IMG/VR virus record: IMGVR_UViG_3300045988_121070
Length of the DNA: 64,000 nt
Source: a virus
Strand: one strand, 5' to 3'
The position numbers and the translations under genes are program-made. This document shows positions 23,225 to 58,395 of this stretch, piece by piece (position 1 is the stretch's first letter; each line of letters starts with the position of its first letter). Under the pieces are notes generated by a model. The model was not told the DNA's origin. It ran no database searches and saw nothing but the letters and a program-made list of their open reading frames with translations.

Positions 23225-24571
23225 CTATTGGATGGCATAGTCGGGTAGGCCAGAAGTGTTGGTACGCACCAATGTGCCCTTGAATGGGAATCCGTCGTGA
23301 CTATTGATGTAGAACAGCGCCTGCGTGAGTTTCTGGTTATTGGTGAAGAACTTATACTTTTGTCCGTTCTCCTCCACCTGAATGACTGTTGCCGGTTTGT
23401 TGTATTTCGATTTCACGTCAAACTCAACATCCGTAAACACTATCTCGCGTCCACAGAGCATGGATGCCGATACCTTAGTACCTTCGAGGATGCGTTTACC
23501 CTCAGCGTCCTTTTTCTCAAATGCAGGAACATTCAGATCCTTATATGATTTCATTTTCATTACAGCGCACCAGAGGTTATAGCCATTGCAGTGCATGGCC
23601 CATCCTTTGTAGCTGGCAGCGGCACGATAGCGTTTCAGCGGGTCTTTGATGCGGTGCATCTTCTGCTTAAACTTCGCCTTCATGCGTTTGCGCAGCAGTG
23701 TGTGTTTGAAGAAAAACATATAGCCCACGAAGTCGAGTCGGTGTTTCTCGTCAATGATCTGCATTCCGATATTCTCATGCAGTGGCTGTTCCATGACCTC
23801 ATCGGCATACTTTTTGATGAAGTTGACCGCTTTCCACACCTCTTTCTTATTGGTGCCAACGATCACCATATCATCGCAGTATATCTCCATCCACACGTCG
23901 AAGAGCATCATTACCAGTCGGCACAGCGGGCATGTGTAGTAGTTGGCGATAGGCTGTATTGGGAACAGTCCGATGCCCAGTCCGCTGTCACATGCCGTCA
24001 CTATCTCACGGATGAGATAGCGGATGCCCTTATTGCCGAACTTCTTAGCCAGGTGGTTATACACCTTATCCTGGTCGATATTATGATAGAACTTCACGAA
24101 GTCCAGTTTGACGAAATAGATGCGGTCGTTATGCTTGCGGTGAATGTCGATATACCTTTTGGTACGACGAGCCGCGAAGTGCATCCCCTTACCTTTGATA
24201 GATGCCGAAGAGTCGTAGTAATACGCCCGCATCATGGTAGGCATAATGACCTGCATCAGTGCATGGTTCTCGATATGGTCAGGAAAATATGGCAGTTTAT
24301 GAAGCACACGGTCCTTCCCGCATGGACAGTGTCGTACACACTCATGTCCTGGGGAAGTATGGTATGCTTCATTTTTCAGCAAATCGTGCAAGAGATTGAG
24401 ATTGCCTTGTGGGTCGCGGTCGAACAAGCGTACTCCCTTGTGCGCATCCTTCCCCCGTCGAGCCTCTATGTCGGCTTGACGCAGGTTCAACGGGTCATAG
24501 ACCTGTTGGATGCGCAGTTTTCTATTCTTTCCGCGCAGGCGTTTCTTACGTTGATAAGCTAATTCTGCCAT
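23225..24571 (-). CDS. Reverse transcriptase of the diversity-generating retroelement
   Basis: 448 aa. RT motifs FVKLDFVKFYHNI and IYCDDMVIVG (YxDD box). Lies immediately 3' of a TR that matches two VRs. Confidence 0.85.
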   Translation of the reverse strand: MAELAYQRKKRLRGKNRKLRIQQVYDPLNLRQADIEARRGKDAHKGVRLFDRDPQGNLNLLHDLLKNEAYHTSPGHECVRHCPCGKDRVLHKLPYFPDHIENHALMQVIMPTMMRAYYYDSSASIKGKGMHFAARRTKRYIDIHRKHNDRIYFVKLDFVKFYHNIDQDKVYNHLAKKFGNKGIRYLIREIVTACDSGLGIGLFPIQPIANYYTCPLCRLVMMLFDVWMEIYCDDMVIVGTNKKEVWKAVNFIKKYADEVMEQPLHENIGMQIIDEKHRLDFVGYMFFFKHTLLRKRMKAKFKQKMHRIKDPLKRYRAAASYKGWAMHCNGYNLWCAVMKMKSYKDLNVPAFEKKDAEGKRILEGTKVSASMLCGREIVFTDVEFDVKSKYNKPATVIQVEENGQKYKFFTNNQKLTQALFYINSHDGFPFKGTLVRTNTSGLPDYAIQ

Positions 24572-24944: not shown

Positions 24945-25063
24945 GTAGATGTTCAGGCGAGCGCCGATGTTCGTGTTCGAGTTCGAGAAACCGTTATTCG
25001 AGTTCGCATACGAAAGACCGCATTGCGCACCGTTATTCGCGTTACCCCCGACGTTCAGCAGCT
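24945..25063 (-). repeat. DGR template repeat (TR)
   Basis: 119 nt. About 30 coding-strand adenines. Encodes the Asn-rich GGNANNGAQCGLSYANSNNGFSNSNTNIGARLNIY. Aligns to VR1 and VR2. Confidence 0.9.
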
Positions 25064-25313: not shown

Positions 25314-25375
25314 CACTGTGGCGAAAGCCGCAGAGAGGGAGCGAGCCGGATGCCGGCTGGCCAATGATTGTCCGC

Positions 25376-26629
25376 TTACGCGGAAATCATGGCCACCAGC
25401 TCCGCACCGCTCACGAATATCGGTTCTCCGTAGAAGGCCAGGCGAGCGCCGATGTTCGTGTACGAGGTCGAGAAACCGCTAGCCGAGTACGCAGACGAAA
25501 GACCGCATGGCGCACCGCTATCCGCGTAACCCCCGACGAACAGCAGCTGACCACCCGTAGCGAACCAATACCCATCGCAGTAGTATGTATTAGAACCGGC
25601 ACCAACAGCCTGGCATATCATATCCCAGTATTCGCCCAGTTCCATGCTCTTAGCATAAGTACCACTGCCACTCTGAGAAGAGAGGGCACAGACAAACTCA
25701 CGGCCTTCAGCGGTATTGCTGACAATATTGCCGTCATAGACGATAGCATAGCGCACGTCGTCGCGCATCTCGAAGCGGATGCCAGGACGGAACTCCCACA
25801 GTTTGCCCCATAGGTCCTCGAAGCCGAACAGCTTGACAGGATATTGGTCGCCGATGGTGGCATCCGTATAGAACACCTTACCTGAACCGTCGCCTAATGA
25901 CTTACAGAGGCCCATAGGCACGTTACGAGCAGCCTCCCATGAACTCGTCTGGAATCCAGCACCGATAACCTCCTGAGAGTTCAGCGAGCCATAGCGGGCC
26001 TGGAAGAGCGCATTGATAAGACAATGGAAGCCATAGTTAGCCAATCCCCACTGTGTGCCGAGCTGCTGTGCGCAGTTCCAGAAGGCGCTCATTGTCTTAG
26101 AATGGCCAGGAGCCACGTTCGGGCGTGAGTGTCCGGCACCGCCACCATCTACTGACATCTTGTAAGCACCTACCCAATGCGGTGAGCCAAAGACATGTCC
26201 TCCGTCAATAGGTACGAGACCGCCGAAGTTCAGCGTCTTGTTTTCTCCGAGGAAATGGCAGTCAGGCACATGGATCATCGTCTCACATGCTGCTTCTATA
26301 GCTGCTGTGACAGGTGTTGCATCCGCGAACTTATCCCATGTAGAGCCATTCAGTTTGGCAGCATATACCTTTCCGTCCTTGCGGAAAAACATATAGCCAC
26401 CCATCTGAGCCTGATAGAGTTCTGCAGCACCACGATTATTGACCGTGAATGCAGGGTTAGAGTTTTCTTCCAACGTGTGTTTGGAAGCGAGCGCACCGAC
26501 CACCGTTGACGGAATGGCCGCATTAGCAACCTCAGAAGGCATTGCTTCATAGAAGTTGCTTGCACTGGTGACACACAACACACGAGCGATGCCTTCACCA
26601 GGGTTGAGAGTTGTTTTTGCTTTCTTCAT
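25376..26629 (-). CDS. DGR target protein 1 (C-terminal variable, C-type-lectin/FGE-like domain), probable receptor-binding protein
   Basis: 417 aa. The C-terminus ...GGYADSGAPCGLSSAYSASGFSTSYTNIGARLAFY is encoded by VR1. Sits in the tail-fibre module. Confidence 0.85.
   Translation of the reverse strand: MKKAKTTLNPGEGIARVLCVTSASNFYEAMPSEVANAAIPSTVVGALASKHTLEENSNPAFTVNNRGAAELYQAQMGGYMFFRKDGKVYAAKLNGSTWDKFADATPVTAAIEAACETMIHVPDCHFLGENKTLNFGGLVPIDGGHVFGSPHWVGAYKMSVDGGGAGHSRPNVAPGHSKTMSAFWNCAQQLGTQWGLANYGFHCLINALFQARYGSLNSQEVIGAGFQTSSWEAARNVPMGLCKSLGDGSGKVFYTDATIGDQYPVKLFGFEDLWGKLWEFRPGIRFEMRDDVRYAIVYDGNIVSNTAEGREFVCALSSQSGSGTYAKSMELGEYWDMICQAVGAGSNTYYCDGYWFATGGQLLFVGGYADSGAPCGLSSAYSASGFSTSYTNIGARLAFYGEPIFVSGAELVAMISA
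25430..25548 (-). repeat. DGR variable repeat 1 (VR1)
   Basis: Hand alignment to the TR gives 119 nt with 16 differences. All 16 are at plus-strand T of the TR, which is coding-strand A. Confidence 0.9.
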
Positions 26630-35550: not shown

Positions 35551-37188
35551 TTACGCATTGATTTTTGCCATGTACTCCTTGCGGATGCGGGCATTCTCCA
35601 GAGGTGACTTTGTGTGGTCGTAAGCAGGCATACCACCCTCGGCCTTCTGTTCCTCGGCACCCTGGCCGTTGTTAGCAGGAGAGCCAGCAGGTACAGCAGC
35701 AGCAGCCGTTGTCAGTTGCTCAATCTGTCCCTTCTGGTCGGTGATGGTCTGATTAGCGGCGGCCAGTTGGTCCTTAACCTCCTTCAGTTCCTTTTCAGCC
35801 TTCTCGCGAGCAGCAATCTCAGCATTGAGTGCAGTGGTGTGCTCCTCTTTGAGCGTGTTGACAGCTTGCTCGTGTGCATCGTTCAATTCCTTCTCACGAG
35901 CAGAGACGGCATCTTTCTTAGTAGTCTCGGCCTGGCTGACTTGTGTCTTCAGACCCTCGATCAGTTTCAGAGCATCCGCCTTTTCAGTGGCGTTAGTCTC
36001 AAGTGTCTGGTTGAGTGCTTCGAGCATGTCGGGCACGAAGTGAGCGCCCTCAGCGTCCACTACCAGCTCAGGTACACCGCAAGCGGTGGCAATTTTTTCA
36101 TACTGTTTCATATTCTCATTGTTTAAGGGGTTGTTCTTTTCTCCCTCGGTGGCAGAACCACCGAGCACAGTGGCATCCGTGGCAGGAGTGGCAGCGGTGG
36201 CAGCTTCGGCTGCTGGTGCAGGTTCCTGTTCGGGTACATCATCTTCAGGAGCAACGGGAGCCACACGTTCGATAGGCTGTGCGGTGCCGTTGGCTACCTC
36301 GAAAGCACGGGTGATAACCTCTCCGAGTGTCATCTGGCCATCGCAGAGGATGCCCTTGACCTTTTCAGCCTCGAAGACCTTACCATGGATATGCTCATCC
36401 TTAGCAGCAGGAAAAGCCTTTTGGATGTCCGAGCGGAACTGTACGCCATCCTCCTTCAGTTCGTCGATGAGCACCTTATCATTCTTCGGGTCATCGGCGA
36501 GGTCACGATACCATTTGTTTTTGTCGTAGGACTCTGGATCGTAAAGTTCGTGGAACGTCTCGTTGGTGTATTTGTTGGTCGTACCGTTCTTTTCTGTGTA
36601 GAACACAGCCATGACACCGATAGAGCCAAACATGTCTTTGGGGTGCATGTAATACACCTCGTCACACTGAGAAGCCAGGTACATGGCAGCAGAGGCACAG
36701 AGACCATCGACGAAAGCATACACTTTCTGTCCGCGTTCGTGTGCATAGTCGATAGCCTGCTTAAAGTCGTTGATAGCCCAAGCGGAGCCACCAGGCGAGT
36801 TAATGACAAAGACATGTGCCTTACAGAACTCGTTATTAGCAGCCTCCATGAGCCAGTCGCGCAGATCCATCGAGCCATAGGAGCAGGCACCACCTTCGCG
36901 GGTGATAGGACCGGCCACCGGCATGACATTGACGAAAGGCGCATCCATGTCCTCCATCCACCAGCGGCTTTCTACCTTGCCTTGCTCAGTCACCTGGTAC
37001 TCCTTGATTTCGGGAGCGGCATCCTCGGCAGACTTGATGAGCTGCATGGCGTATGGCTTTTTCTTTTTGTCGAACTCCAAAGCGACGTGACCATTCAGGT
37101 TCTGTTCCCACATGGTACGAGAACCATGCACGTATTCCGGCATGATCATCCACTTCTTCGTTGACAGGATTTCTAATAGTCCATTCAT
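35551..37188 (-). CDS. S49 (SppA/ClpP-like) head maturation protease fused to a coiled-coil scaffold
   Basis: VINSPGGSAWAINDF...FVDGLCASAAMYLAS...GSIGV matches the S49 peptidase pattern. The C-terminal 200 aa are Ala/Glu/Lys coiled coil. Confidence 0.8.
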   Translation of the reverse strand: MNGLLEILSTKKWMIMPEYVHGSRTMWEQNLNGHVALEFDKKKKPYAMQLIKSAEDAAPEIKEYQVTEQGKVESRWWMEDMDAPFVNVMPVAGPITREGGACSYGSMDLRDWLMEAANNEFCKAHVFVINSPGGSAWAINDFKQAIDYAHERGQKVYAFVDGLCASAAMYLASQCDEVYYMHPKDMFGSIGVMAVFYTEKNGTTNKYTNETFHELYDPESYDKNKWYRDLADDPKNDKVLIDELKEDGVQFRSDIQKAFPAAKDEHIHGKVFEAEKVKGILCDGQMTLGEVITRAFEVANGTAQPIERVAPVAPEDDVPEQEPAPAAEAATAATPATDATVLGGSATEGEKNNPLNNENMKQYEKIATACGVPELVVDAEGAHFVPDMLEALNQTLETNATEKADALKLIEGLKTQVSQAETTKKDAVSAREKELNDAHEQAVNTLKEEHTTALNAEIAAREKAEKELKEVKDQLAAANQTITDQKGQIEQLTTAAAAVPAGSPANNGQGAEEQKAEGGMPAYDHTKSPLENARIRKEYMAKINA

Positions 37189-39755: not shown

Positions 39756-39917
39756 CTATTCCTTGTTGCGGTGGCAGAATGCCTCACACCACATACGGCG
39801 GTTGACTGTTTCGCCCGTTGTGGGGCAGAAATAGCCACGCGGTTTTTTCGGTTCGCTGTTGGCGCATGTGGTGCAGTTGGTCGTTTCGGACCATCCATTG
39901 ACTATTGTTTCATTCAT
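39756..39917 (-). CDS. Small Cys-rich protein (53 aa, below the track cutoff)
   Basis: Hand translation: MNETIVNGWSETTNCTTCANSEPKKPRGYFCPTTGETVNRRMWCEAFCHRNKE. The start overlaps the stop of the upstream gene. Confidence 0.35.
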   Translation of the reverse strand: MNETIVNGWSETTNCTTCANSEPKKPRGYFCPTTGETVNRRMWCEAFCHRNKE

Positions 39918-40299
39918 AGAGTTTCTTCATTGCGTTACCCAATTCCTGTATGGCGGAAATGGTTTTTGTTATGGGTTTCTCGTTGGGAGAATCAGCGAGC
40001 ACTATTTTTTTCTGACAGAAGTCGGCAACGGCTTTTTCGAGACATGCGCCACGCGAAGTTTCGTAGTCTTTCATCAGATAGATAGCCTTGCAGAAGAATG
40101 CGAGGATCATGCAGTCGATGAATACCTGGAAACGATAAGGCATGATAGAGAAGAGCGGCTGGAACCAGCCGAACATCGTGGTAGGATTGACGGGTGTGTA
40201 GCCCAAGCAAAACACGATGTATTCTGCCATTCCAAAGCGATCCAGATAGTCGGTAGTGCCGGTGATGGGACCTGAGATATAGATACGGGGACGTTTCAT
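39910..40299 (-). CDS. DUF4406 / nucleoside 2-deoxyribosyltransferase-like protein
   Basis: The N-terminus MKRPRIYISGPITGT... matches the IYISGP(M/I)TG signature as I recall it. Confidence 0.55.
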   Translation of the reverse strand: MKRPRIYISGPITGTTDYLDRFGMAEYIVFCLGYTPVNPTTMFGWFQPLFSIMPYRFQVFIDCMILAFFCKAIYLMKDYETSRGACLEKAVADFCQKKIVLADSPNEKPITKTISAIQELGNAMKKLYE

Positions 40300-41073: not shown

Positions 41074-41397
41074 TTATCTTATTTTTATACCTAAGTTACA
41101 TTCACCTGTAAAGATGCTGTTGACGCTGTTGTGCGAACATTCGGAACACATGGCACCATCGTCGTCTGGGAACGGACAGCCGAGAGAGGCGAGGTCTTTG
41201 CGCTCGATACCAGCATAAGGGTCGAAGCCCTTGCTGTTAATGCAGTGCTGAGTAGCGGGGTCGTCAGCGATTTCTTTGTCAGCACAGTGTGAACAGAGTT
41301 CGTGCGTATCATCGACCCACCAGCAATTACCATGTGTCGGGTTGTGACAGGGGTCGGTGTCTGTGCATCCGCATATTTTACATACTCCGTATGGCAT
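41074..41397 (-). CDS. Cys-rich hypothetical protein
   Basis: 107 aa with many CxxC pairs. Confidence 0.5.
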   Translation of the reverse strand: MPYGVCKICGCTDTDPCHNPTHGNCWWVDDTHELCSHCADKEIADDPATQHCINSKGFDPYAGIERKDLASLGCPFPDDDGAMCSECSHNSVNSIFTGECNLGIKIR

Positions 41398-41400
41398 ATT

Positions 41401-41890
41401 TTATCGATTTAGAATTAGATATTTACCTTGTATCGAGGATTGGCACAGGCGAGCGTCTGCTTCATAGCCGAAGGCGACGAGGACAGAACCGAAGAATGGG
41501 GAGCCGGTGGTGCCGTCTGGCTGAATGAACCTGATGCGGTGGCGCATGAAGATCAGCGACTTTGCCTTGGGGAAGATGACTTCCTGAAAGAGTAGGTTAT
41601 CAACCTGGTTCTTCAGTAAGGCGATACCATTGTTATGCTCTGCCAACTTCTCAACGAATGGACGCAGTAGGGAGCGGCTATATGGCGGGTTCATAAAGAC
41701 CAGTGCCGAGGAAGGCCATTCCTGAGCAAGCCCGTTTTGCTCCTTATTATACGATAGTGGCGCTATCTGATAGGGGGGGGGTAATTGGCGAACATGGGTC
41801 CAAATCAAATGGCCCCAACTCATCGATAACCCACTTTGGTGTGTACCACTCATCGGAACTTACTACGGGATTGCGCTGTGTCTTGTTCAT
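41401..41890 (-). CDS. Phage Dam-like N6-adenine DNA methyltransferase, split by a C9 tract
   Basis: From ATG 41890: MNKTQRNPVVSSDEWYTPKWVIDELGPFDLDPCSPITPP, then the tract at 41773-41781. The 41401..41853 frame continues PPYQIAPL...LVFMNPPYS. One C fewer joins the two frames. Confidence 0.7.
41773..41781 (-). repeat. Homopolymer: C9 on the coding strand (G9 on plus)
   Basis: Coding-strand context aattaCCCCCCCCCtatc. The frame is broken as sequenced. Confidence 0.9.
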
Positions 41891-44413: not shown

Positions 44414-45181
44414 TTAAAATAATGTTTGTTGTGATAATTCTATTTTGATATTCTTCTCAGCCATTGCGAAATACTCAGGATGAATTTCAAAGCCAATGTA
44501 ATGGCTTTTCTCCTTGATAGCTGCTATGGCTGTTGTTCCGCTACCTATGAAAGGGTCGAGAATTACCCCCCCCCGTGGCACGAAAAAATGTATGAGCGTC
44601 TGAGGTAAAAGAAGCGGGAATGCTGCCCGATGCTTACCTTTGTGGTTCTTTCCAATTCTCAACACATTGGATAGTTTACCACGTTCAGCGTTCAATAGAG
44701 GAAACTGGCGGCCTTTACAGTCGTGCTTATCGAAAGCGATGATAAATTCATACTCACAGTTGAGCACTCCTGAGTGCATGGCCGGTTCAGACGATTTCTT
44801 ATCCCAGATAAGGATATCACGGATGCGGTCAGCATAGTGGCCAAAGATTTTCATCAGAGCCACCTTATTACCTGTTATCATCATTATGTTATAGAAGACA
44901 GGTCCATTGCTGACACGTAACATTTCGTCGATACACTGACATTGCCAGTTGAAATAGTCATCCATTGACATTGCATCATTCACACGGTTGTCGTAACGAT
45001 TAGCAGGGAGGCCGGTATAACCAAACGTCTCTCCTTTCGTCCATTTGGTATATTTACCAGAATGGATGCGTAGGCCGAAGTTATAAGGCGGTGAAGTGAT
45101 AACAGCATTTACGCTGTTATCCTCCATCTGCCTCATTCCTTCGAGACAATCCATGTTGTATATGGTGTCAATGTTCATCAT
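44414..45181 (-). CDS. N4-cytosine/N6-adenine DNA methyltransferase (beta class)
   Basis: From ATG 45181: MMNIDTIYNMDCLEGM...VITSPPYNF (motif IV) ... ILDPFIGSGTTAIAA (motif I). The track N-terminal extension to 45358 is an out-of-frame read through VR2. Confidence 0.8.
   Translation of the reverse strand: MMNIDTIYNMDCLEGMRQMEDNSVNAVITSPPYNFGLRIHSGKYTKWTKGETFGYTGLPANRYDNRVNDAMSMDDYFNWQCQCIDEMLRVSNGPVFYNIMMITGNKVALMKIFGHYADRIRDILIWDKKSSEPAMHSGVLNCEYEFIIAFDKHDCKGRQFPLLNAERGKLSNVLRIGKNHKGKHRAAFPLLLPQTLIHFFVPRGGVILDPFIGSGTTAIAAIKEKSHYIGFEIHPEYFAMAEKNIKIELSQQTLF
44566..44574 (-). repeat. Homopolymer: G9 on the coding strand
   Basis: Encodes PRGGV just before motif I. In frame as sequenced. Plus-strand context aattaCCCCCCCCCgtgg. 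Confidence 0.9.
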
Positions 45182-45182
45182 A

Positions 45183-46010
45183 TTACTTCTGCTCTTCAGG
45201 AATTGGTTTGAAGACCAGGGCCGACCATAGCGCAGCGAATTGGCGACCAGCGTATTTCGCAAGTTCGCTCGATTTGAAGGCCAGGCGAGCGCCGAAGCAC
45301 GCGTTCGAGCGCGAGAAACCGAGACTCGAGTCCGCAGCCGAAAGACCGCAGCGCGCACCGCTAGCCGCGAGACCCCCGACGATCAGCAGCTGTGCCTTAT
45401 CATCCTCACTCATTTCGTCTATCTCCTTCTGGGTATAGAGGTAGAAGTAAGGATAGTAGCGATATTCATCCTCAGTGAATTGTGGCACCCATCCTTCATT
45501 GAGGGCATAGGTGATGATGCGGAGCTGGATGTAAGCAAGCAGGTCAGGTGTACGTGGCGAATTAAACCAGAGGTCTATCATCAGTTCGTTAGCCAGTTTG
45601 TCGCCAGCCTGAGCACGGCGATTGAGGTCATTGCAAGCATCCTCAAAGGTCTTGATGCGTTCTGTGACGGGGCGGTTGTCTGGAGTTTCTGTTTCATCCG
45701 CAGGTATGATGCAAGACCAATCCTCTGCCAAAATATCCTCCCATGAGGGAATGTAGTAGGTGGCAGAAGCCGGTGTTTTACCGTCGTCTGTGAAGGTAAT
45801 CATAATCACCTGGTCGTGGTAGGATATTTCGCCACTTCCAACGGTGCTAATCTTTGGTTTGATAGATGCTGGCAGGGATGTCATCTTTGGCACCACATCC
45901 TTTGCTATACATTGGGGGATCTGCATGACGATTTCCTGATTGTCATGCCACGTAGAACGGGAGGCATGGCCACCCTTTTTCAGACATTCAATAACTGCTG
46001 GAAAATTCAT
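45183..46010 (-). CDS. DGR target protein 2: DUF2829-like N-terminal domain fused to a VR-bearing C-type-lectin/FGE-like domain
   Basis: From ATG 46010: MNFPAVIECLKKGGHASRSTWHDNQ...ATYYIPSWEDILAEDWSCI. The C-terminal GGLAASGARCGLSAADSSLGFSRSNACFGARLAFK is encoded by VR2. Confidence 0.8.
   Translation of the reverse strand: MNFPAVIECLKKGGHASRSTWHDNQEIVMQIPQCIAKDVVPKMTSLPASIKPKISTVGSGEISYHDQVIMITFTDDGKTPASATYYIPSWEDILAEDWSCIIPADETETPDNRPVTERIKTFEDACNDLNRRAQAGDKLANELMIDLWFNSPRTPDLLAYIQLRIITYALNEGWVPQFTEDEYRYYPYFYLYTQKEIDEMSEDDKAQLLIVGGLAASGARCGLSAADSSLGFSRSNACFGARLAFKSSELAKYAGRQFAALWSALVFKPIPEEQK
45276..45391 (-). repeat. DGR variable repeat 2 (VR2), about 20 kb from the TR
   Basis: Hand alignment to TR 24948-25063 gives 116 nt with 23 differences. 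22 are at coding-strand A of the TR. One is a non-adenine change. Confidence 0.85.
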
Positions 46011-46029
46011 ATTACTTTTGGTTATTAGA

Positions 46030-46049
46030 CCCCGCCGTTCTCGGCGGGG
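46030..46049 (-). repeat. GC hairpin family copy with inverted loop
   Basis: ccccgccgttctcggcgggg followed by catgggtta. Confidence 0.6.
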
Positions 46050-46055
46050 CATGGG

Positions 46056-46886
46056 TTATTGTTTTGTATCGGCGACAGAATCGCCGAGCACACTGTTATG
46101 TAGATCGGGACAGATAGACCAATCACGGCAGAAGCGGCGGATAGACTCTTTCCAAAGGATGCGGAAGTTGTGCTCTTTGGAGAGGCGCTGCACTTCACGG
46201 ATGAAGCGCTCGCACTGGGCGGAGTCGTAGCGTTTCTTGCTGTAAGGAGAGAGTAGGCCAATGCGGAACTCCTGGCAGTCGGAGGCAATGGTGCGGATGA
46301 TTGCCAGTGAGGAAACGAAGTCGATGACCGGCTCCATGCTGGCAAAGGTGCGGAACTGCATCTTTGAGAGATAGATAAGTGCTGTCTGACGCGATACGTT
46401 AGCCGGAGCACCAGGTTCGAGTTCGTCGTGGCCGGTGAGTGTGAAGCCGATGGTGAGGAGGTCACGGTGTGCATAGAGTGTGCCCATTACCCAATCCTCA
46501 CGTACCCACCATGTAGCCTTGGTGAGGATGATGACGGGCACCTGTTGGCTGAAGGCATATTCTATGCAGCTCAGGGTGAGCGTGATTTCCTCACGCAGCA
46601 TCGGGTCTGTTGAGAAAGAAAAGAACAGCCCGCCATCGGCGGTAATCTGGTCACGATATTTATCAAGTTCTTGGCAGAAAAGATGATACGCTTTCTTAGG
46701 ATCACCACCGAGTAGGGCCTTAATCTCTGGCACATCCTTACCGAGAGTATGGCCAAACACACCACGCTTACAGTAGCAGTAGGTACAGGAATGAGAGCAG
46801 CCGTTGTAGAGGTTGCAAGCCCATGTGCTGTATTCTGCAGCAGCACCGTTAGGGCGGTAGATGGCGAGGTTCTTTGTTTTACTCAT
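46056..46886 (-). CDS. Radical SAM domain protein
   Basis: 276 aa. CSHSCTYC fits the CxxxCxxC cluster in NLYNGCSHSCTYCYCK. Confidence 0.75.
   Translation of the reverse strand: MSKTKNLAIYRPNGAAAEYSTWACNLYNGCSHSCTYCYCKRGVFGHTLGKDVPEIKALLGGDPKKAYHLFCQELDKYRDQITADGGLFFSFSTDPMLREEITLTLSCIEYAFSQQVPVIILTKATWWVREDWVMGTLYAHRDLLTIGFTLTGHDELEPGAPANVSRQTALIYLSKMQFRTFASMEPVIDFVSSLAIIRTIASDCQEFRIGLLSPYSKKRYDSAQCERFIREVQRLSKEHNFRILWKESIRRFCRDWSICPDLHNSVLGDSVADTKQ
46071..46085. promoter_or_regulatory. PAL-B variant inside the 3' end of a CDS
   Basis: ggcgacagaatcgcc followed by gagcacactg. Confidence 0.45.
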
Positions 46887-52578: not shown

Positions 52579-55500
52579 CTAACCTTTCCAGAGGCGGTCG
52601 CCGGAGTTGCGGCGCATGAAGTTAGCGCCATCCTGAGACTCCTGCGTGATGCCACCACGTCCGTATTTATTGACATGGAGGCCGTTGCGCTTGATAGCCA
52701 GCATGACGGCGGTAAACTCGGAGAGCGTAGAACGGAGGCCGTCGATATCCTCTTTGGTGATGGTGTTGTCCGACGGAGAACCGTCGGGAGTGGTGGTGCC
52801 ATCAGTGCCGAGGAAATCAGAGAGGTTGCCTTCGTCGTAGGTGCGGTAGGCATGGCCATTTGAGTAGTTTTTGTCGAACTTCACGATAGCCGCGAGGAGG
52901 TCGGGACGAGCCATCTGCATGGCAGCCGTCGTTTCGCGTCCAATCACCATTTCTGGGCCACGTTCTCCGACGAGAGACGGTTGACCGTTGACCATGGTCG
53001 CTATGGGCGATGTGACGAGACCCGTCTGCAGTTGTGGTACCTGGCGAGCCTGATAGACATAGCCATCCGTACCGAGGACGGGTGTGCGGTCGCCACCATA
53101 GCCAGCGGGCGAACCGCTGGAAGCGGGTGTAGCAGAGGGAGAGTAGCCGGATGGAGAGGGACTTCCGGCGGAAGAACCGCCGGACACACTCTGGACGTTA
53201 CCACTGTCATAGGTGAGCATACCAGTGGCGAGTTTGACGTTAGGAGTTGCAGCATCAGCGCCACCACTCTCGTCACCACCAAAGGCGAGTCCGATAGCCC
53301 ATGATAGCAATCCCATCAACAAGGCGGTGATGACACCGATGAGCGGAATACCCCACCATCCGAGGGTGCCAATGATCTTAGCAGCACCACCAGCGATACC
53401 GAGACCCACCTTACCAGTGGTAGCCCCCGCTTCCTCTGCCAGTTCGGTAGCATTCGAGGTAGAGTGCTGTGTGAGGCGGGCAGCATCGCCCGTTGCCTGA
53501 GCCGTGAGCATCAGCGTCTGGTAGAGTTGCTGTATCTGCAACATCGTAGCCTGGTGCATGGTCTCGTCGGCTTCTTCCTGACGATAGTAGAGCTGCTTAG
53601 TGACGCGACGTGTGAGGTCTTGTGCGATGAGTTGCAGAGACATCTTCACATACGACTTCAGCATATCCTTCAGGAGGTCTTTGAATTTGACATCCGACTG
53701 TTCGGTGTCGTAGATCATATTACCCAGCGACTCCCCTACCCCTTCAGCGAACGTGTTAAGCGGTTCAGAGAAGTTTTGGAGGAGAGACACGCGCTCTTGG
53801 AACTTACGTGCCACCGAGTCGGCCATTTCAGACTGAGCCTCCATCATCTGACGTTTAGCATCCGTCAGCTGCTGTTCAGAGATTTTATCCTGTTCACGCA
53901 GACGCGCCATATCCTCATAATAGAGACGGGCGCGTTCAGCCAGCAGGCGATAGCGCAAGATTTCAGGGTCAGAATCCATATTCCAGGACATGCCCATCTG
54001 CTGTCCCACGTTCTTATCCGACTCGAAGCGTTGCGTATCGCTGTTGATGGTTGACAGCTGCTGTGTCGATTTGTCGATACTCTGAATGGTAGGATTGTTA
54101 TTGAAAACAAAATCCGCACGGCGCTTTGCCTCGTCGTAGGCTTTCTTCTGAGCATCCGTATAAGCATCCGAGTATTCAATCAGTTTCTGGTAGAACACCT
54201 TGAACTGGTCGGCAGACATGTTGAGCAGCGAAGAAAGGCCCGTACCAGCGAGATATGACTTATACTCTTTACCGAAGAGGATGGTAAGCACCTTATCCGG
54301 CGCATCCTCACTATTCGCATCGACAGAGAGCAGTTCCACGATGTTTTCGCGAGTAGCGGTGAAAGCCTTTTGCCACTGAGCGGTGCGGTCGTCGATGAAC
54401 TGCTGGATAGCCTCGTTATTACCCTTCTGCGACCACCCCATCATCTGAGCGATCTGTTCGGAAGTCAATTCGGCGACACCAAACTGTTCCATCTGGTTCT
54501 CGTAGTCGAGGTTGACCTTCCCCGTATAGTTCTTTTCCAGGAGCACCTTCTGACGGTCCTGGTAAGCCTTATTCTGCTGGTTGGCGTTTTTCAATTCGTT
54601 TTCTGTAGCCTTACGCCATATCTGATCGAGCAATACAGAACCATTCTGTCCCAACTCCTTAGAAAGCGTGGTAATCATGTCCTTCAGTTTCTCGACATCA
54701 TTATGGATAATGTTATCGAGCAGCTGCGTGGACTGATTTGTGCCGTCAGCAGACAGCGGTTCGTAGAGGTCGTTAAGCATCGACTGGCGGAACTGTGCCC
54801 AATCGTTCTCAGTACCCGCAATCGCCTGACGGACGTTAGCCAGTGCATTGTTCATGCGGATTGTCATGCCGTCCACCAGTTTCTTCTGGAGTTCAGAATC
54901 CATGCCCGTCTTTGTCGCCATTTCCGTGATGGCAGCAATCTGACGCTCGTAGTAATTCTTGACGTTATCGACAATCGCCTGAGCCTTGCCCTGTTCCTCT
55001 CTCATTTCCTGACGGAGCGCCTTGCGACGGGCTGCCTCTTCCGCCTTACGGCGACGTTCTGCCTCCTTATCGGGTGCATCGTTATCAAGAGCACCAGGAG
55101 ACTCGTCTTCGGTGGCGGTAACGAGATCGTCTTCAAACGGCTTCCACTTTTTGTTGACGCGGTTCATGGCGTTGGTAGCCGAGTAAGCCTGCGTAGCATA
55201 ACGGGTGGCAGCATAAAGCATCCGTTCGGCCTGGGTAAGGGCGCGGGTGTTGTTGGCACGGACCTCATTTGGTGTAAGTGTGCTTTCAGGACCGCTATTC
55301 ATTCGCATGTCGCGAACATAGCCATGCACATCGAACCATTCCGTCGGTGACTTGCTGGAACGAGACTTGTAAGCATCAGCGGCTATTTCGCCATTGACAC
55401 CCAGTTTCCTTGCCAGGTCCTTGTTGATTTCTTCAACAGACTTGCCGGCTTTCTGCATATCATCGACATAGGCTTTGAGCCATGTGCCGTTGTAGGGAGA

Positions 55501-58395
55501 GCCACCCGCCACGTTATCGTATTCCGTGAGGCGGTCGGCAGACCATCCGACACGAGGAGCCACCTGAGAGGTAATGTCCTTTTCCTTCATCTGAAGGGCG
55601 ATCTTCGCACGGAGTTGCTTCACCACCTCCTTGTAAGCCTTTGCTACATCATAGGCAGTAGATTTTTCGGTGAGCATCTTCGAGAGATACTGGCCATACT
55701 CCTTGTTAAAGTTACGAATAGCAGCCGCACGTTGACGTGAGCCGTTGGCTGCTTCGTCGATAGCCTTCTTAAAGCGTTTCAGACGGTCATCAGCGATGGC
55801 AAACTCACGGTTGAAGTCAGACATCGTGCTATTGAAGCCCTGCATCCATGTAGTAGCCTTTTGTCCGCTCTTAATGACAGAACCGATAGCAATAGCGAGG
55901 CCCGTCAGAAGCGAGATACAGAGACCGATGACATTCATCTTCTGAGCCGTGTTCAGAGCGTGCCATGCAGCCACAAGTCCCTTAGTCTGGAGCGTGGCCA
56001 ATACCGAAGCCTTACCCATGAGACCGATAGACGATGCCAAACCGATGATAGCCACCGAAGCACCCTTGAAGAGCAATCCCGTAAGAATAGCCGGCAGGAG
56101 TGCGAGGAGTATCTTCAATTCAGCAGCAATCAGTCCGAGGAGGTTTTTCATTATCCACATGGAAGCCTCGTTGGAAGTCATGGACTTTGAGAGGTCGTAC
56201 CATGCCTGGGCCATCTGTTTTACCATATCGACACCCTCTGGGTTGGTGAAAGCCTTTGCCCAGAGGTTATTACCCTTTTCGAGGATAGCGTTAGCAGTGT
56301 CCTGTTTCAGAGCATACTCATTGGTGAGAGACGTTGCCTCTGCGAAAGCCTCGTTAGACTCTTCGACATGCGCACGGACCGTATCGACATTCTTAGACAT
56401 GGTAGCCATGACACCGATAAGGCGCTGACCTTCAGAGCCGAGGTCTTTCCAGATGTTGCCGAGGGCATTCATGTTACCCTTTTCACGCATCTTTTCCATT
56501 ATCTGAAGAATGGCCTCCATTGCCTTACCCTGTTGGAAAAGGTTATTGATTGTGCCCTTCTCCATGTTCAACTGCTGTTCGATGAGATTATGGTTGGTTT
56601 GCAGCGACGTGAAGAGTTTACCGAATGCCGTGGCCGCTACTTCAGGAGCCTGGCCGAGCGCATCGGCAGCAGAGCCGAGTGCCAGCAGTTCTGGCGTAGT
56701 GATGCCCGTGATGCGGGAAAGACCCGTGAGGCGTTTAGCGAAGTCAACGATATGTGTTCCTGATGCAGTAGAAGTGGCCGACAGTTGGTTGATAGCCGAG
56801 CCGACAGACAGCATGGAGCGTTCGACACCCAGTTTGGGGATAAGTCCCATGGTATCGACGAGTTTGGAAATTTGCAAGAGGCTGTCATCGCCGAGGTCGT
56901 CGGAGAGCGCCACCTTTACCTGGTCGGCAGCACGGACGAAAGCCGACATACCTTCGACACCATACTGTCCAAAGCCCATTTTACCACCCTGGTAGGCGAG
57001 GTCGGCGAGATCCTGCACCGTAGAGCGCGTGTTTATCTTAGCCAGGCTTTCAGACAATTCGTTGACCTCCTTGGTGGCGAGGCCCGTCACCTTACGGATG
57101 TCTGCGAGTTGGTCAGAATAAGCCAGGTTGCTTTGCAGCATCCCCTGCAGTTTCTGCTGGGCGATAGAAAACAGTTGGAAGACACCGAAGTACATGGAGA
57201 TATTGCGAAACGTCGTTTTCCATGCAGACCCCTGACGGTTGATAGCGCCGGTGGTACGTTCTATTTCCCCACGTATGGCTGCCAGCTGCTTCTGTTTGTC
57301 GATATACTGCTGTTGGTCGCGGTTGAGTTTAGCCATTTCCGTCTCTAACTGCTTTGCCGCCTTTTGGAGTGTTTCGAGCGGAGCCTTGCGGAGGTTAGCC
57401 GGCTGGAGGAGGTTGCCGATATCAACCAGTTCGTGATCAACACCCGCGAGGATGTTTTGCAGCTGCTTCATCTGTTCGTTGAGTTTCTTGCGGGCCGTAT
57501 CGCCTGTGCCGAGGTTGCTCAACTTACGCTGTATCTCATCGATGGCAGCTTTTATTTCCTTTGGTGAGAACTTTTTAGGATCGAGGATGATATTGTCAGC
57601 CTTCTGCTGGAGTTGGTCGGTGGTGAGTTCTATCTGTTTCTCCTTACCCGCGATAGCATCCAGTTGGTCGTCACACTTCTTCAGTTCAGCATTGATGCGC
57701 TCGATCTCAGCAGCCACGTTGCCGGAAGCGGGGAGGATGCCACCTTTGCCCAACTGGTCACGATAACTGGCGAGGTTGGCACGAGCAGAGCGGAGCGCAT
57801 CAGCAGAAGCCCCACCACCACTGATTGTAGCGACAGCGCGGCGAGCCTGTTCGTTTTGCAGTTGATGAAGGATATTGACCTGCGACTGATAGGCGCTGCT
57901 GGTTTTCTGTGTAGAAGCCACCAACTGCTTCTGCTGATTGATGGCGCGTTGCAACCAGGAATCCGTCTGTGTGGAGAGTTCGCCCATGTGCTTTTTGATG
58001 TTCAGCATTTCGCCCTGCATGACCTTGATTTGGTCGGTGATAGCCTTATATTTCTGGCGCAGTTCTTCGAGTTTAGGGCTACTCTCGCTGGTGCGTGACA
58101 TTTCCTTTTTGACCTGACGAAGCGCCTGGTTCAGTTGAGACAGCGACGCATTAGAGAGGTTGGTAATGACCTTCTCCACCTTTTTCATGTCCGCCTCCTG
58201 CTGTTTGATGAGCGCACGGAGGTCGGCCATTTCCTTTTGCAGTTTCTGGGCACGTTGTGCGCCCGTTGCTGTGGAAGTGTTGATGGCATTATACGCCTTT
58301 TCCAGGCGCGACAGTTCGTTGCGCATGGCTTTGACGGCTGCTACTGGTTGTGCGGAGTCCGCACTGATCTTGATGTATATCTGTTTATCGGCCAT
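52579..58395 (-). CDS. Tail tape measure protein
   Basis: 1938 aa. Coiled-coil N-terminus. The core region LADIRKVTGLATKEVNELS...VDFAKRLTG...AATAFGKLF is typical of the TP901-type tape measure core. Hydrophobic segments in the middle. Confidence 0.85.
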   Translation of the reverse strand: MADKQIYIKISADSAQPVAAVKAMRNELSRLEKAYNAINTSTATGAQRAQKLQKEMADLRALIKQQEADMKKVEKVITNLSNASLSQLNQALRQVKKEMSRTSESSPKLEELRQKYKAITDQIKVMQGEMLNIKKHMGELSTQTDSWLQRAINQQKQLVASTQKTSSAYQSQVNILHQLQNEQARRAVATISGGGASADALRSARANLASYRDQLGKGGILPASGNVAAEIERINAELKKCDDQLDAIAGKEKQIELTTDQLQQKADNIILDPKKFSPKEIKAAIDEIQRKLSNLGTGDTARKKLNEQMKQLQNILAGVDHELVDIGNLLQPANLRKAPLETLQKAAKQLETEMAKLNRDQQQYIDKQKQLAAIRGEIERTTGAINRQGSAWKTTFRNISMYFGVFQLFSIAQQKLQGMLQSNLAYSDQLADIRKVTGLATKEVNELSESLAKINTRSTVQDLADLAYQGGKMGFGQYGVEGMSAFVRAADQVKVALSDDLGDDSLLQISKLVDTMGLIPKLGVERSMLSVGSAINQLSATSTASGTHIVDFAKRLTGLSRITGITTPELLALGSAADALGQAPEVAATAFGKLFTSLQTNHNLIEQQLNMEKGTINNLFQQGKAMEAILQIMEKMREKGNMNALGNIWKDLGSEGQRLIGVMATMSKNVDTVRAHVEESNEAFAEATSLTNEYALKQDTANAILEKGNNLWAKAFTNPEGVDMVKQMAQAWYDLSKSMTSNEASMWIMKNLLGLIAAELKILLALLPAILTGLLFKGASVAIIGLASSIGLMGKASVLATLQTKGLVAAWHALNTAQKMNVIGLCISLLTGLAIAIGSVIKSGQKATTWMQGFNSTMSDFNREFAIADDRLKRFKKAIDEAANGSRQRAAAIRNFNKEYGQYLSKMLTEKSTAYDVAKAYKEVVKQLRAKIALQMKEKDITSQVAPRVGWSADRLTEYDNVAGGSPYNGTWLKAYVDDMQKAGKSVEEINKDLARKLGVNGEIAADAYKSRSSKSPTEWFDVHGYVRDMRMNSGPESTLTPNEVRANNTRALTQAERMLYAATRYATQAYSATNAMNRVNKKWKPFEDDLVTATEDESPGALDNDAPDKEAERRRKAEEAARRKALRQEMREEQGKAQAIVDNVKNYYERQIAAITEMATKTGMDSELQKKLVDGMTIRMNNALANVRQAIAGTENDWAQFRQSMLNDLYEPLSADGTNQSTQLLDNIIHNDVEKLKDMITTLSKELGQNGSVLLDQIWRKATENELKNANQQNKAYQDRQKVLLEKNYTGKVNLDYENQMEQFGVAELTSEQIAQMMGWSQKGNNEAIQQFIDDRTAQWQKAFTATRENIVELLSVDANSEDAPDKVLTILFGKEYKSYLAGTGLSSLLNMSADQFKVFYQKLIEYSDAYTDAQKKAYDEAKRRADFVFNNNPTIQSIDKSTQQLSTINSDTQRFESDKNVGQQMGMSWNMDSDPEILRYRLLAERARLYYEDMARLREQDKISEQQLTDAKRQMMEAQSEMADSVARKFQERVSLLQNFSEPLNTFAEGVGESLGNMIYDTEQSDVKFKDLLKDMLKSYVKMSLQLIAQDLTRRVTKQLYYRQEEADETMHQATMLQIQQLYQTLMLTAQATGDAARLTQHSTSNATELAEEAGATTGKVGLGIAGGAAKIIGTLGWWGIPLIGVITALLMGLLSWAIGLAFGGDESGGADAATPNVKLATGMLTYDSGNVQSVSGGSSAGSPSPSGYSPSATPASSGSPAGYGGDRTPVLGTDGYVYQARQVPQLQTGLVTSPIATMVNGQPSLVGERGPEMVIGRETTAAMQMARPDLLAAIVKFDKNYSNGHAYRTYDEGNLSDFLGTDGTTTPDGSPSDNTITKEDIDGLRSTLSEFTAVMLAIKRNGLHVNKYGRGGITQESQDGANFMRRNSGDRLWKG
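52770..52787 (-). repeat. GC hairpin family copy inside the tape measure gene (different stem)
   Basis: ccgacggagaaccgtcgg followed by gagtggtgg. Encodes PDGSPSD. Confidence 0.6.
53102..53120 (-). repeat. GC hairpin family copy inside the tape measure gene
   Basis: ccagcgggcgaaccgctgg. Encodes SSGSPAG. Confidence 0.6.

Follow-up and report, generated by a model that had tools for sequence, protein, structure and literature searches.

A Tad2-like domain fused to the second, remote target of a diversity-generating retroelement in a phage of gut Bacteroidota

The diversity-generating retroelements (DGRs) of phages are understood almost wholly as tropism switches on tail proteins. That a DGR can have a second, remote target is already known: a catalogue of 2018 lists non-adjacent targets within prophages (PMC5758913), and in 2025 distal second variable repeats (VRs) near methyltransferases were noted briefly, with second VRs adjoining counter-defence genes in four Bacteroidota prophage species (PMC12629997). 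The largest metagenomic survey of DGRs was, by its own statement, unable to detect non-adjacent targets (PMC8144416), and for 2,548 DGR-bearing viral operational taxonomic units a 2026 cohort study reported none with a known anti-defence protein as target (bioRxiv 10.64898/2026.03.05.709809). Here we analysed a 64,000-nucleotide stretch of IMG/VR record IMGVR_UViG_3300045988_121070 (the window), from a phage of about 105 kb that infects gut Bacteroidota. Its second variable repeat, VR2, lies in a gene that joins a Tad2-like domain to a hypervariable module, and in the full-text literature on DUF2829/Tad2 with DGRs we found no description of such a fusion. What is new is the delimitation of the target family, the Tad2-family fusion, the adjacency of an AcrIIA7/HgmTad2 orthologue to the module in sister phages, and the tracking by VR2 of its own template repeat (TR). 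The components are the following.

24948-25063, minus strand: TR; its 3' end, AACATC, is read as IMH* (IMH, initiation of mutagenic homing)
25433-25548, minus strand: VR1, in the adjacent primary target; 16 differences from the TR, all at adenines
25376-26629, minus strand: primary DGR target gene, 417 amino acids, tail protein phrog_5302 (E = 8.9e-36), with VR1 at its 3' end
23225-24571, minus strand: reverse transcriptase (RT), 448 amino acids; PF00078 (RVT_1), 30.8 bits against a cut-off of 29.6; phrog_1423, E = 4.3e-63
45183-46010, minus strand: VR2 target gene, encoding a 275-residue two-domain protein; coordinates include the stop codon, likely start at ATG 46010 (MNFPAV...)
45711-46010, minus strand: Tad2-like (PF11195/DUF2829) domain, residues 1-100, from Pfam, PDB sequence matches and Foldseek
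45186-45671, minus strand: C-terminal hypervariable module, residues ~114-275; phrog_11581, E = 2.7e-46
45276-45391, minus strand: VR2, 116 nucleotides with 23 differences from the TR; its last six nucleotides, GCCTTC, are IMH-like

The TR and VR2 differ at 23 of 116 nucleotides, and 22 of these differences fall on the 29 adenines of the TR (Fisher exact test, P = 1.2e-16); an earlier reading made from the letters alone (the sequence-only reading) had given the same extent and counts, and we recomputed them identically. Three of the 22 belong to the fixed IMH*/IMH change and are not diversified positions. We pulled the TR, VR1 and VR2 copies of relatives from IMG/VR by the pattern of the non-adenine positions of the TR. 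Across related phages the TR is nearly invariant, and any two close relatives have different VR2 sequences, with the differences almost confined to TR adenines. A fossil VR, invariant among relatives, had been allowed for beforehand and does not describe this one, as five VR2 copies vary at 25 of the 29 TR-adenine positions and at 2 of the 87 others. Furthermore, the TR of IMGVR_UViG_3300011005_000586 (L066, 2555-2700) carries private changes (AA>CT near the 5' end, A>G and T50>A), and the adenine newly gained at TR position 50 is a variable position in both VR1 and VR2 of that phage; VR2 has therefore been re-templated from its own TR.

The protein sequences agree with this. In three clusters of the fusion protein at 90% identity, with 13 to 15 members each, every codon templated by AAY shows seven to nine residues and the other columns show at most three. 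Against orthologues, the ratio of nonsynonymous to synonymous substitution rates (dN/dS) of the VR is 1.8 to 5 (20 nonsynonymous and 0 synonymous changes against locus L003), compared with 0.13 to 0.21 for the module scaffold and 0.06 to 0.26 for residues 1-100. These results indicate that VR2 is actively and repeatedly re-templated and that purifying selection acts on both the Tad2-like domain and the module scaffold. The sole difference between the TR and VR2 away from an adenine is T54>G, which also occurs in VR2 of locus L064; it is common to two relatives and absent in three others. It could be either an inherited point mutation that homing left unreset, perhaps through partial-length cDNA replacement, or a recurrent non-adenine error of the RT.

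The repeats were first located by local BLAST of the 3' end of the VR2 gene, with copies at 25433-25549 and 24954-25063, and the limits of the TR, VR1 and VR2 were set by ungapped comparison. The gene order is target-TR-RT with no Avd-like gene between VR1 and the RT in the map of open reading frames (ORFs), an arrangement that corresponds to lineage 3 of PMC5758913, found in Bacteroides and its relatives. By codon position the adenines of the TR number 14, 14 and 1, and its ten AAY codons allow about 7e14 possible peptides. In the window as in its relatives, all copies of VR1 and VR2 have GCCTTC at the end, in place of the AACATC of the TR, with the GC-rich CGGCGCTCGCCTG preceding, and we read the two as an IMH*/IMH pair. 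The 3' flank of VR1 (25357-25420) forms a strong predicted hairpin (DNA fold -22 kcal/mol, z = -2.4), and by fold z-score no comparable hairpin after VR2 or the TR was significant; the hairpin after VR1 may be the terminator of the target gene, or a DGR target-recognition element absent at VR2.

The VR2 gene lies about 20 kb from the RT, the TR and the primary target, in a block of replication and DNA-modification genes and not in the tail block, both as the sequence-only reading had placed it. Its ORF, with a G+C-rich 3' end, spans 45183-46052 on the minus strand and is open up to an alternative ATG at 46052. Relatives conserve residues 1-28, and some orthologues have His or Arg in place of Met29; Met29 was therefore ruled out as the true start, and translation must begin upstream of it, most plausibly at ATG 46010. 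Public gene calls (P0001 and P0005 to P0008) often begin at Met29, and the resulting proteins of 242 to 247 amino acids have a cut Tad2 helix and an empty Pfam field; the loss of the Pfam match is one likely reason that such fusions were missed in surveys of DGR targets and of anti-defence genes. We detected no signal peptide and no membrane segment in the VR2 protein.

We then considered the two halves of the protein. Residues 1-99 match PF11195 (Tad2-like, formerly DUF2829) with 43.6 bits, where the gathering score is 25 (E = 4.5e-11), and cover positions 1-71 of the 73 in the profile; this hidden Markov model (HMM) search bore out the DUF2829 N terminus of the sequence-only reading. Matches to PDB sequences were SptTad2, Tad2, ModTad2, HgmTad2 and SPO1 Tad2. 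The full-length AlphaFold2 (AF2) model, a check that the earlier reading had proposed, has a predicted local distance difference test score (pLDDT) of 63 overall and about 53 to 86 in the Tad2-like domain. In a Foldseek search of that domain against the PDB, the only significant matches were SPO1 Tad2 (8smg/8smf/8sme; probability 1.00, target-normalised TM score 0.59 to 0.69). By HMM and by predicted fold, residues 1-100 are thus assigned to the Tad2 family. The nearest relatives are standalone Tad2-like proteins of 103 to 117 amino acids, at 65 to 79% identity; others, from phage contigs, are proteins of about 173 amino acids with PF11195 and PF21825, so C-terminal fusions do occur in this subfamily, and homologues at 36 to 40% identity are present in Bacteroides phages DAC and SJC and in a crAss-like phage.

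The VR lies off this domain, on a separate C-terminal module whose C-terminal ~38 codons it occupies. The sequence-only reading was therefore right about the Tad2-family half and wrong in putting the hypervariable surface on that scaffold. Residues ~105-266 match phrog_11581, a family of unknown function (E = 2.7e-46) that comprises 3,762 clusters by single-sequence search and at least 7,435 by profile search at E ≤ 1e-3; at 50% identity there are 1,387 representatives, a count that includes matches to the Tad2 half. Members are mostly 190 to 205 amino acids long and match no Pfam or NCBIfam model; among the matches listed (at least 7,435 clusters) none carries a Pfam domain. The family alignment shows the conserved features IKTFEDAC, a three-helix segment LRII..ALNEGW.P.F, EYRYYPWF, the hypervariable stretch and G.RLAF...YAG.QF; a helical scaffold precedes the VR, and a conserved helix at the C terminus follows it. 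An AF2 model of the module alone (144 sequences) reached a pLDDT of 73.5 and a predicted TM score of 0.69, with 79 to 96 in the scaffold. A sequence-profile search of the PDB with the module returned nothing, and a structural search of BFVD returned only uncharacterised phage proteins. N termini across the family take at least five unrelated forms, and in the alternative extensions (forms of ~290 to 400 amino acids) we found no informative domain in Pfam, NCBIfam or PHROGs. In a scan of genome contigs the module occurred only in Bacteroidota, with hosts among Bacteroides, Phocaeicola, Prevotella, Lepagella, Rikenellaceae, Flavobacterium, Chitinophagales and Sphingobacterium.

Sister phages gave the closest view of how the two halves relate. 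The window is collinear with loci L004 and L005 from ThyX through the methyltransferase gene at 93 to 95% nucleotide identity, except for the 333 nucleotides of the fused Tad2-like domain (46007-45675); in their place L004 and L005 have 590 nucleotides, holding a separate gene and a short beta-hairpin N terminus of the module.

L004 9447-9950 and L005 5739-6200: separate Tad2-like gene (E = 2.5e-22), upstream of the unfused module

This separate gene is a close orthologue of AcrIIA7 (9kzr, E = 1e-43) and HgmTad2 (8kbi, E = 3e-39), with the canonical W-N-G and S-Q-T-D motifs intact, and AcrIIA7/HgmTad2 are validated anti-CRISPR, anti-Thoeris and anti-CBASS factors (PMC13133391; bioRxiv 10.1101/2023.11.15.567273). 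The fused and the separate Tad2-like domains are only 23% identical, which rules out an origin of the fusion by deletion between adjacent genes arranged as in L004; the difference in this slot is, by the alignments, a cassette replacement, with break-points at the conserved ...RPVTERIKTFEDAC junction. Both alternative cassettes place a Tad2-family domain directly before the module, one as a neighbour and one as a fusion, and the two functions therefore appear linked. Moreover, against the fusion orthologue P0025 (a cluster of 413 sequences), which is 65% identical, dS is saturated and dN/dS in the Tad2 domain is 0.06, so that the fusion is old and maintained. In the scan of genome contigs no copy of the full fusion was found.

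To place the module among DGR targets in general, we self-compared 60 IMG/VR loci with a module homologue, each with 10-kb flanks, for adenine-specific TR/VR pairs. In five of them (L011, L015, L020, L023 and L025) the module gene has a VR whose TR is on the other strand, some 10 kb distant; the distance in L043 is 6 kb. Four relatives of the window phage also have a remote module VR. For most of the remaining loci a TR, if there is one, lies beyond the 10-kb flanks. LoVEphage (OY725593), which is among the most prevalent gut phages and is inducible from cultured isolates, encodes a 194-residue "hypothetical protein" (CAJ1313343.1) whose VR differs from a TR at 11 positions, all 11 at adenines.

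L001 5875-6459 (OY725593.1 57015-57599), strand opposite to the TR: LoVEphage module gene; the TR is at 41085-41196, about 16 kb away

The GenBank record of LoVEphage does not annotate CAJ1313343.1 as a DGR target. In a distant branch (L048 to L054; for example L048 9749-10861) the module is the primary target and adjoins the TR and RT; directly upstream of these are two VR copies, which in L048 sit in two small tandem genes.

Across lineages the neighbours of the module are YqaJ, C5 and Dam methylases, dUTPase, MazG, PNK3P, NinG, VRR-NUC and metallo-beta-lactamase-fold proteins, with no tail genes among the immediate neighbours. By this comparison a remote DGR target among methyltransferases is not unusual for Bacteroidota phages, in which the module is a recurrent non-adjacent target. 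In L008 to L010 (for example L008 1273-2232) the gene directly upstream of the module encodes a 319-residue metallo-beta-lactamase-fold protein, and a batch scan of upstream neighbours gave one weak match to the anti-Pycsar protein Apyc1 (E ~1e-3), plausibly among four proteins of this fold. This Apyc1-like neighbour is possibly a further anti-defence neighbour.

How might such a protein be used? One TR rewrites two genes, that of the adjacent tail protein, through VR1, and that of a protein encoded outside the tail block, through VR2. In the reading that we put forward, the VR2 protein would be made early and stay in the infected cell, because it has no signal peptide or membrane segment and no conserved virion-anchoring N terminus and because its neighbours are early genes. 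The hypervariable module would present a surface whose binding can be adapted to some polymorphic component of the host, of which a defence protein is the most plausible, and the role of the Tad2-like domain would be either to sequester a nucleotide immune signal or to tetramerise and so lend the variable module avidity. The window phage would thus carry on one polypeptide two functions that its sister phages carry on two. The presence of two methyltransferases in the same block counts in favour of a link with counter-defence, and the earlier suggestion that the VR may adapt binding to host immune components gains strength from the AcrIIA7/HgmTad2 orthologue in the same slot of the sister phages. 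For the VR2 protein itself, an early, intracellular counter-defence role of this kind has, in our estimate, about an even chance of being right. The wider proposal, in which the phrog_11581 module in general is a DGR-programmed intracellular binder, an antibody-like counter-immunity repertoire against polymorphic host defence proteins to which the Tad2 fusion adds a sponge or a tetramerisation domain, is tentative, and we would sooner expect it to fail than to hold.

Several observations weigh against this reading. In HgmTad2 the signal gcADPR is contacted by W21-N22-G23, the diphosphate loop, and by S90, T92 and D93 (bioRxiv 10.1101/2023.11.15.567273). The first of these motifs aligns to W-H-D here (H22-D23), the second to S/E/D, and about 3 of 12 contact residues are identical to HgmTad2 in the HMMER alignment; the consensus of the subfamily is W-D-G-D-K. 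As the signal-binding loop departs from the canonical motif, sponge activity cannot be assumed, and the Tad2-like domain here may not be a sponge. Among the 1.84 billion representatives of the library searched, only one cluster at 50% identity contains the fusion, and a Tad2-like gene is not a general neighbour of the module, occurring only in the phage group of the window; the Rosetta-stone argument is therefore local and not family-wide, and the association of Tad2 with the module could be local history. The VR core has low confidence in the AF2 model of the module (pLDDT 30 to 45), and Foldseek found no structural match to the module in the PDB, solved C-type-lectin targets included. The 3' flank of VR2 folds weakly (z = -0.2), although Avd-less Bacteroidota DGRs may not need such an element. 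Finally, the position of the VR2 gene is also compatible with a virion protein.

In an alternative explanation the VR2 protein would be an adhesin, secreted or attached to the virion, namely a secondary receptor-binding or decoration protein whose gene lies apart from those of the tail, with the Tad2-like domain only an oligomerisation or attachment adaptor, and VR2 would diversify binding to the host surface or to mucus glycans as VR1 does. Characterised phage DGR targets are receptor-binding proteins, and those annotated are mostly tail proteins (PMC8144416, PMC12636319). The VR2 peptide scaffold is almost the same as that of VR1 in the tail protein, phrog_5302 matches residues 192-248 weakly (E = 1e-3), and a single distant homologue, from phage Versailles, carries the annotation "tail protein". 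The phrog_5302 match, however, is limited to the TR-derived stretch, and the module family always lies among genes of replication, recombination and nucleotide metabolism. A signal peptide or membrane segment is lacking, and the N terminus, which would be needed for docking to the virion, is swapped between phages that are 93 to 95% identical elsewhere and takes at least five unrelated forms across the family. We regard an adhesin as unlikely. A further alternative is an intracellular role outside defence: during takeover the module might bind some host factor of replication, transcription or metabolism that is variable, and the Tad2 fusion would then be neutral cassette shuffling in a hotspot of accessory genes. 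The restriction of the fusion to one lineage, the ordinary DNA-metabolism genes that neighbour the module elsewhere and the loss of the canonical signal-binding loop all suit this explanation, as do break-points at the ...RPVTERIKTFEDAC junction, a natural recombination site. A slot indifferent to its content would be unlikely, though, to hold a Tad2-family domain in both cassettes, the dN/dS of 0.06 at saturated dS in the fused domain speaks for strong purifying selection, and housekeeping host factors are too little polymorphic to reward a ~1e14-fold diversification; we find a non-defence role improbable.

That VR2 is a relic or bystander, once fed by cDNA or duplicated and no longer a functional target, might seem to be indicated by a T54>G change that two relatives have in common and homing has not reset, by the missing clear hairpin downstream and by a TR 20 kb away. 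Against this stand the differences between all pairs of close relatives, which fall almost only at TR adenines, the response of VR2 to a private TR mutation, its hypervariability within 90%-identity clusters, an IMH-like end that is the same as in VR1, and the recurrence of the arrangement in LoVEphage and other lineages, where the TR sequences are unrelated. The relic hypothesis, to which we give next to no weight, is rejected on this evidence.

All genes in the region of VR2 are on the minus strand, and the immediate surroundings of the gene are the following.

44414-45181, minus strand: N6/N4 DNA methyltransferase (PF01555, E = 1.3e-29), directly downstream of the VR2 gene
46056-46886, minus strand: radical-SAM gene, directly upstream of the VR2 gene; PF04055, E = 1e-4, below cut-off
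46030-46049, minus strand: perfect 8-bp GC hairpin with a 4-nucleotide loop (CCCCGCCG-AGAA-CGGCGGGG), read from the sequence

The sequence-only reading had described the VR2 gene as following the radical-SAM gene, as it does, and as translationally coupled to the methyltransferase. The junction is TAA-T-ATG, with the ATG of the methyltransferase one base past the TAA, as that reading had it. In L002, otherwise 95 to 96% identical, the methyltransferase gene is absent and 818 nucleotides (44428-45245) are replaced by about 142; the coupling is therefore not conserved. The radical-SAM protein also has a weak match to NCBIfam rSAM_PA0069. The hairpin sits between the stop of the radical-SAM gene and the start of the VR2 gene, within the ORF of the alternative ATG 46052, and might act in termination, in attenuation or in the stability of the RNA.

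Elsewhere in the same early block lie a second DNA methyltransferase (phrog_111, 41401-41853) and a gene for a nucleoside 2-deoxyribosyltransferase-like protein (39910-40299), and the combination of such genes in one block points to extensive modification of the phage DNA. The product of a 545-codon ORF at 35551-37188 resembles head-maturation (ClpP-like) proteases of Flavobacterium, Cellulophaga and Porphyromonas phages at about 27% identity, which fits a Bacteroidota host without a closely related isolate. Among GenBank phages there was no nucleotide match to the VR2 region, and hence there is no close isolate. A 1,938-codon ORF at 52579-58395 lies upstream of the replication genes.

The Tad2 domain is the only recognisable domain that we found on any member carrying the phrog_11581 module and the sole functional hint for this family, so that the fusion is the first domain-level clue to the role of a very large family of "second" DGR targets. 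At this locus the TR of a receptor-binding protein also rewrites an early protein that we read as non-structural, and the role of second DGR targets in gut phages becomes directly testable, as LoVEphage carries the same module. If the proposed function were true, the thousands of unfused members would form a large, hitherto unrecognised class of adaptive anti-defence proteins that the same TR diversifies alongside the tail receptor-binding protein, and in the window phage a single polypeptide would target a variable immune component and neutralise or titrate its signal.

In comparison with known systems, the locus shares with the second targets described before (PMC12629997, PMC5758913) a single TR serving an adjacent tail target and another target 10 to 20 kb off, in an early region with methyltransferases, and its module is homologous to the remote target CAJ1313343.1 of LoVEphage. 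Unlike here, the accessible parts of those two accounts contain no definition of a second-target family, no analysis of fold or domains and no mention of Tad2; compared with what they describe, the present target carries a domain of an anti-defence family and belongs to a delimited family (phrog_11581, at least 7,400 clusters, Bacteroidota only). With C-type-lectin DGR targets such as BPP-1 Mtd, TvpA and the tail-collar fibre of crAss-like phages, the VR2 protein has in common a VR at the C-terminal end of the ORF, codons templated by TR-adenine AAY, a 3' IMH-like difference and a conserved Gly/Ala/Ser scaffold between the variable codons. Unlike targets of the Mtd/TvpA type, its gene lies outside the tail block, is not adjacent to the TR and has no Avd, and the small helical domain that precedes the VR has no detectable similarity to solved C-type-lectin targets.

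With the Tad2 sponges (SPO1 Tad2, HgmTad2/AcrIIA7, SptTad2 and MoTad2; anti-Thoeris, anti-CBASS and anti-Pycsar) the VR2 protein shares the HMM and the predicted fold, and like the HgmTad2 and SptTad2 types that bind cyclic dinucleotides it has a long beta2-beta5 insertion (bioRxiv 10.1101/2023.11.15.567273); its origin in an early accessory region of a Bacteroidota phage is a further likeness. It differs from these standalone proteins of ~90 to 105 amino acids in its additional 160-residue C-terminal module, in having W-H-D for W-N-G with most other ligand contacts changed, and in a hypermutated region outside the Tad2 domain. Another parallel is provided by the DGR-diversified putative conflict or antigen-sensor proteins of multicellular bacteria, in which, as the available portion of that report describes them (PMC10907252), a DGR acts on an intracellular protein of immune conflict and not on an adhesin. 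Those proteins are cellular and stand on the side of defence, whereas the VR2 protein is small, belongs to a phage and, if our reading is right, would stand on the side of counter-defence.

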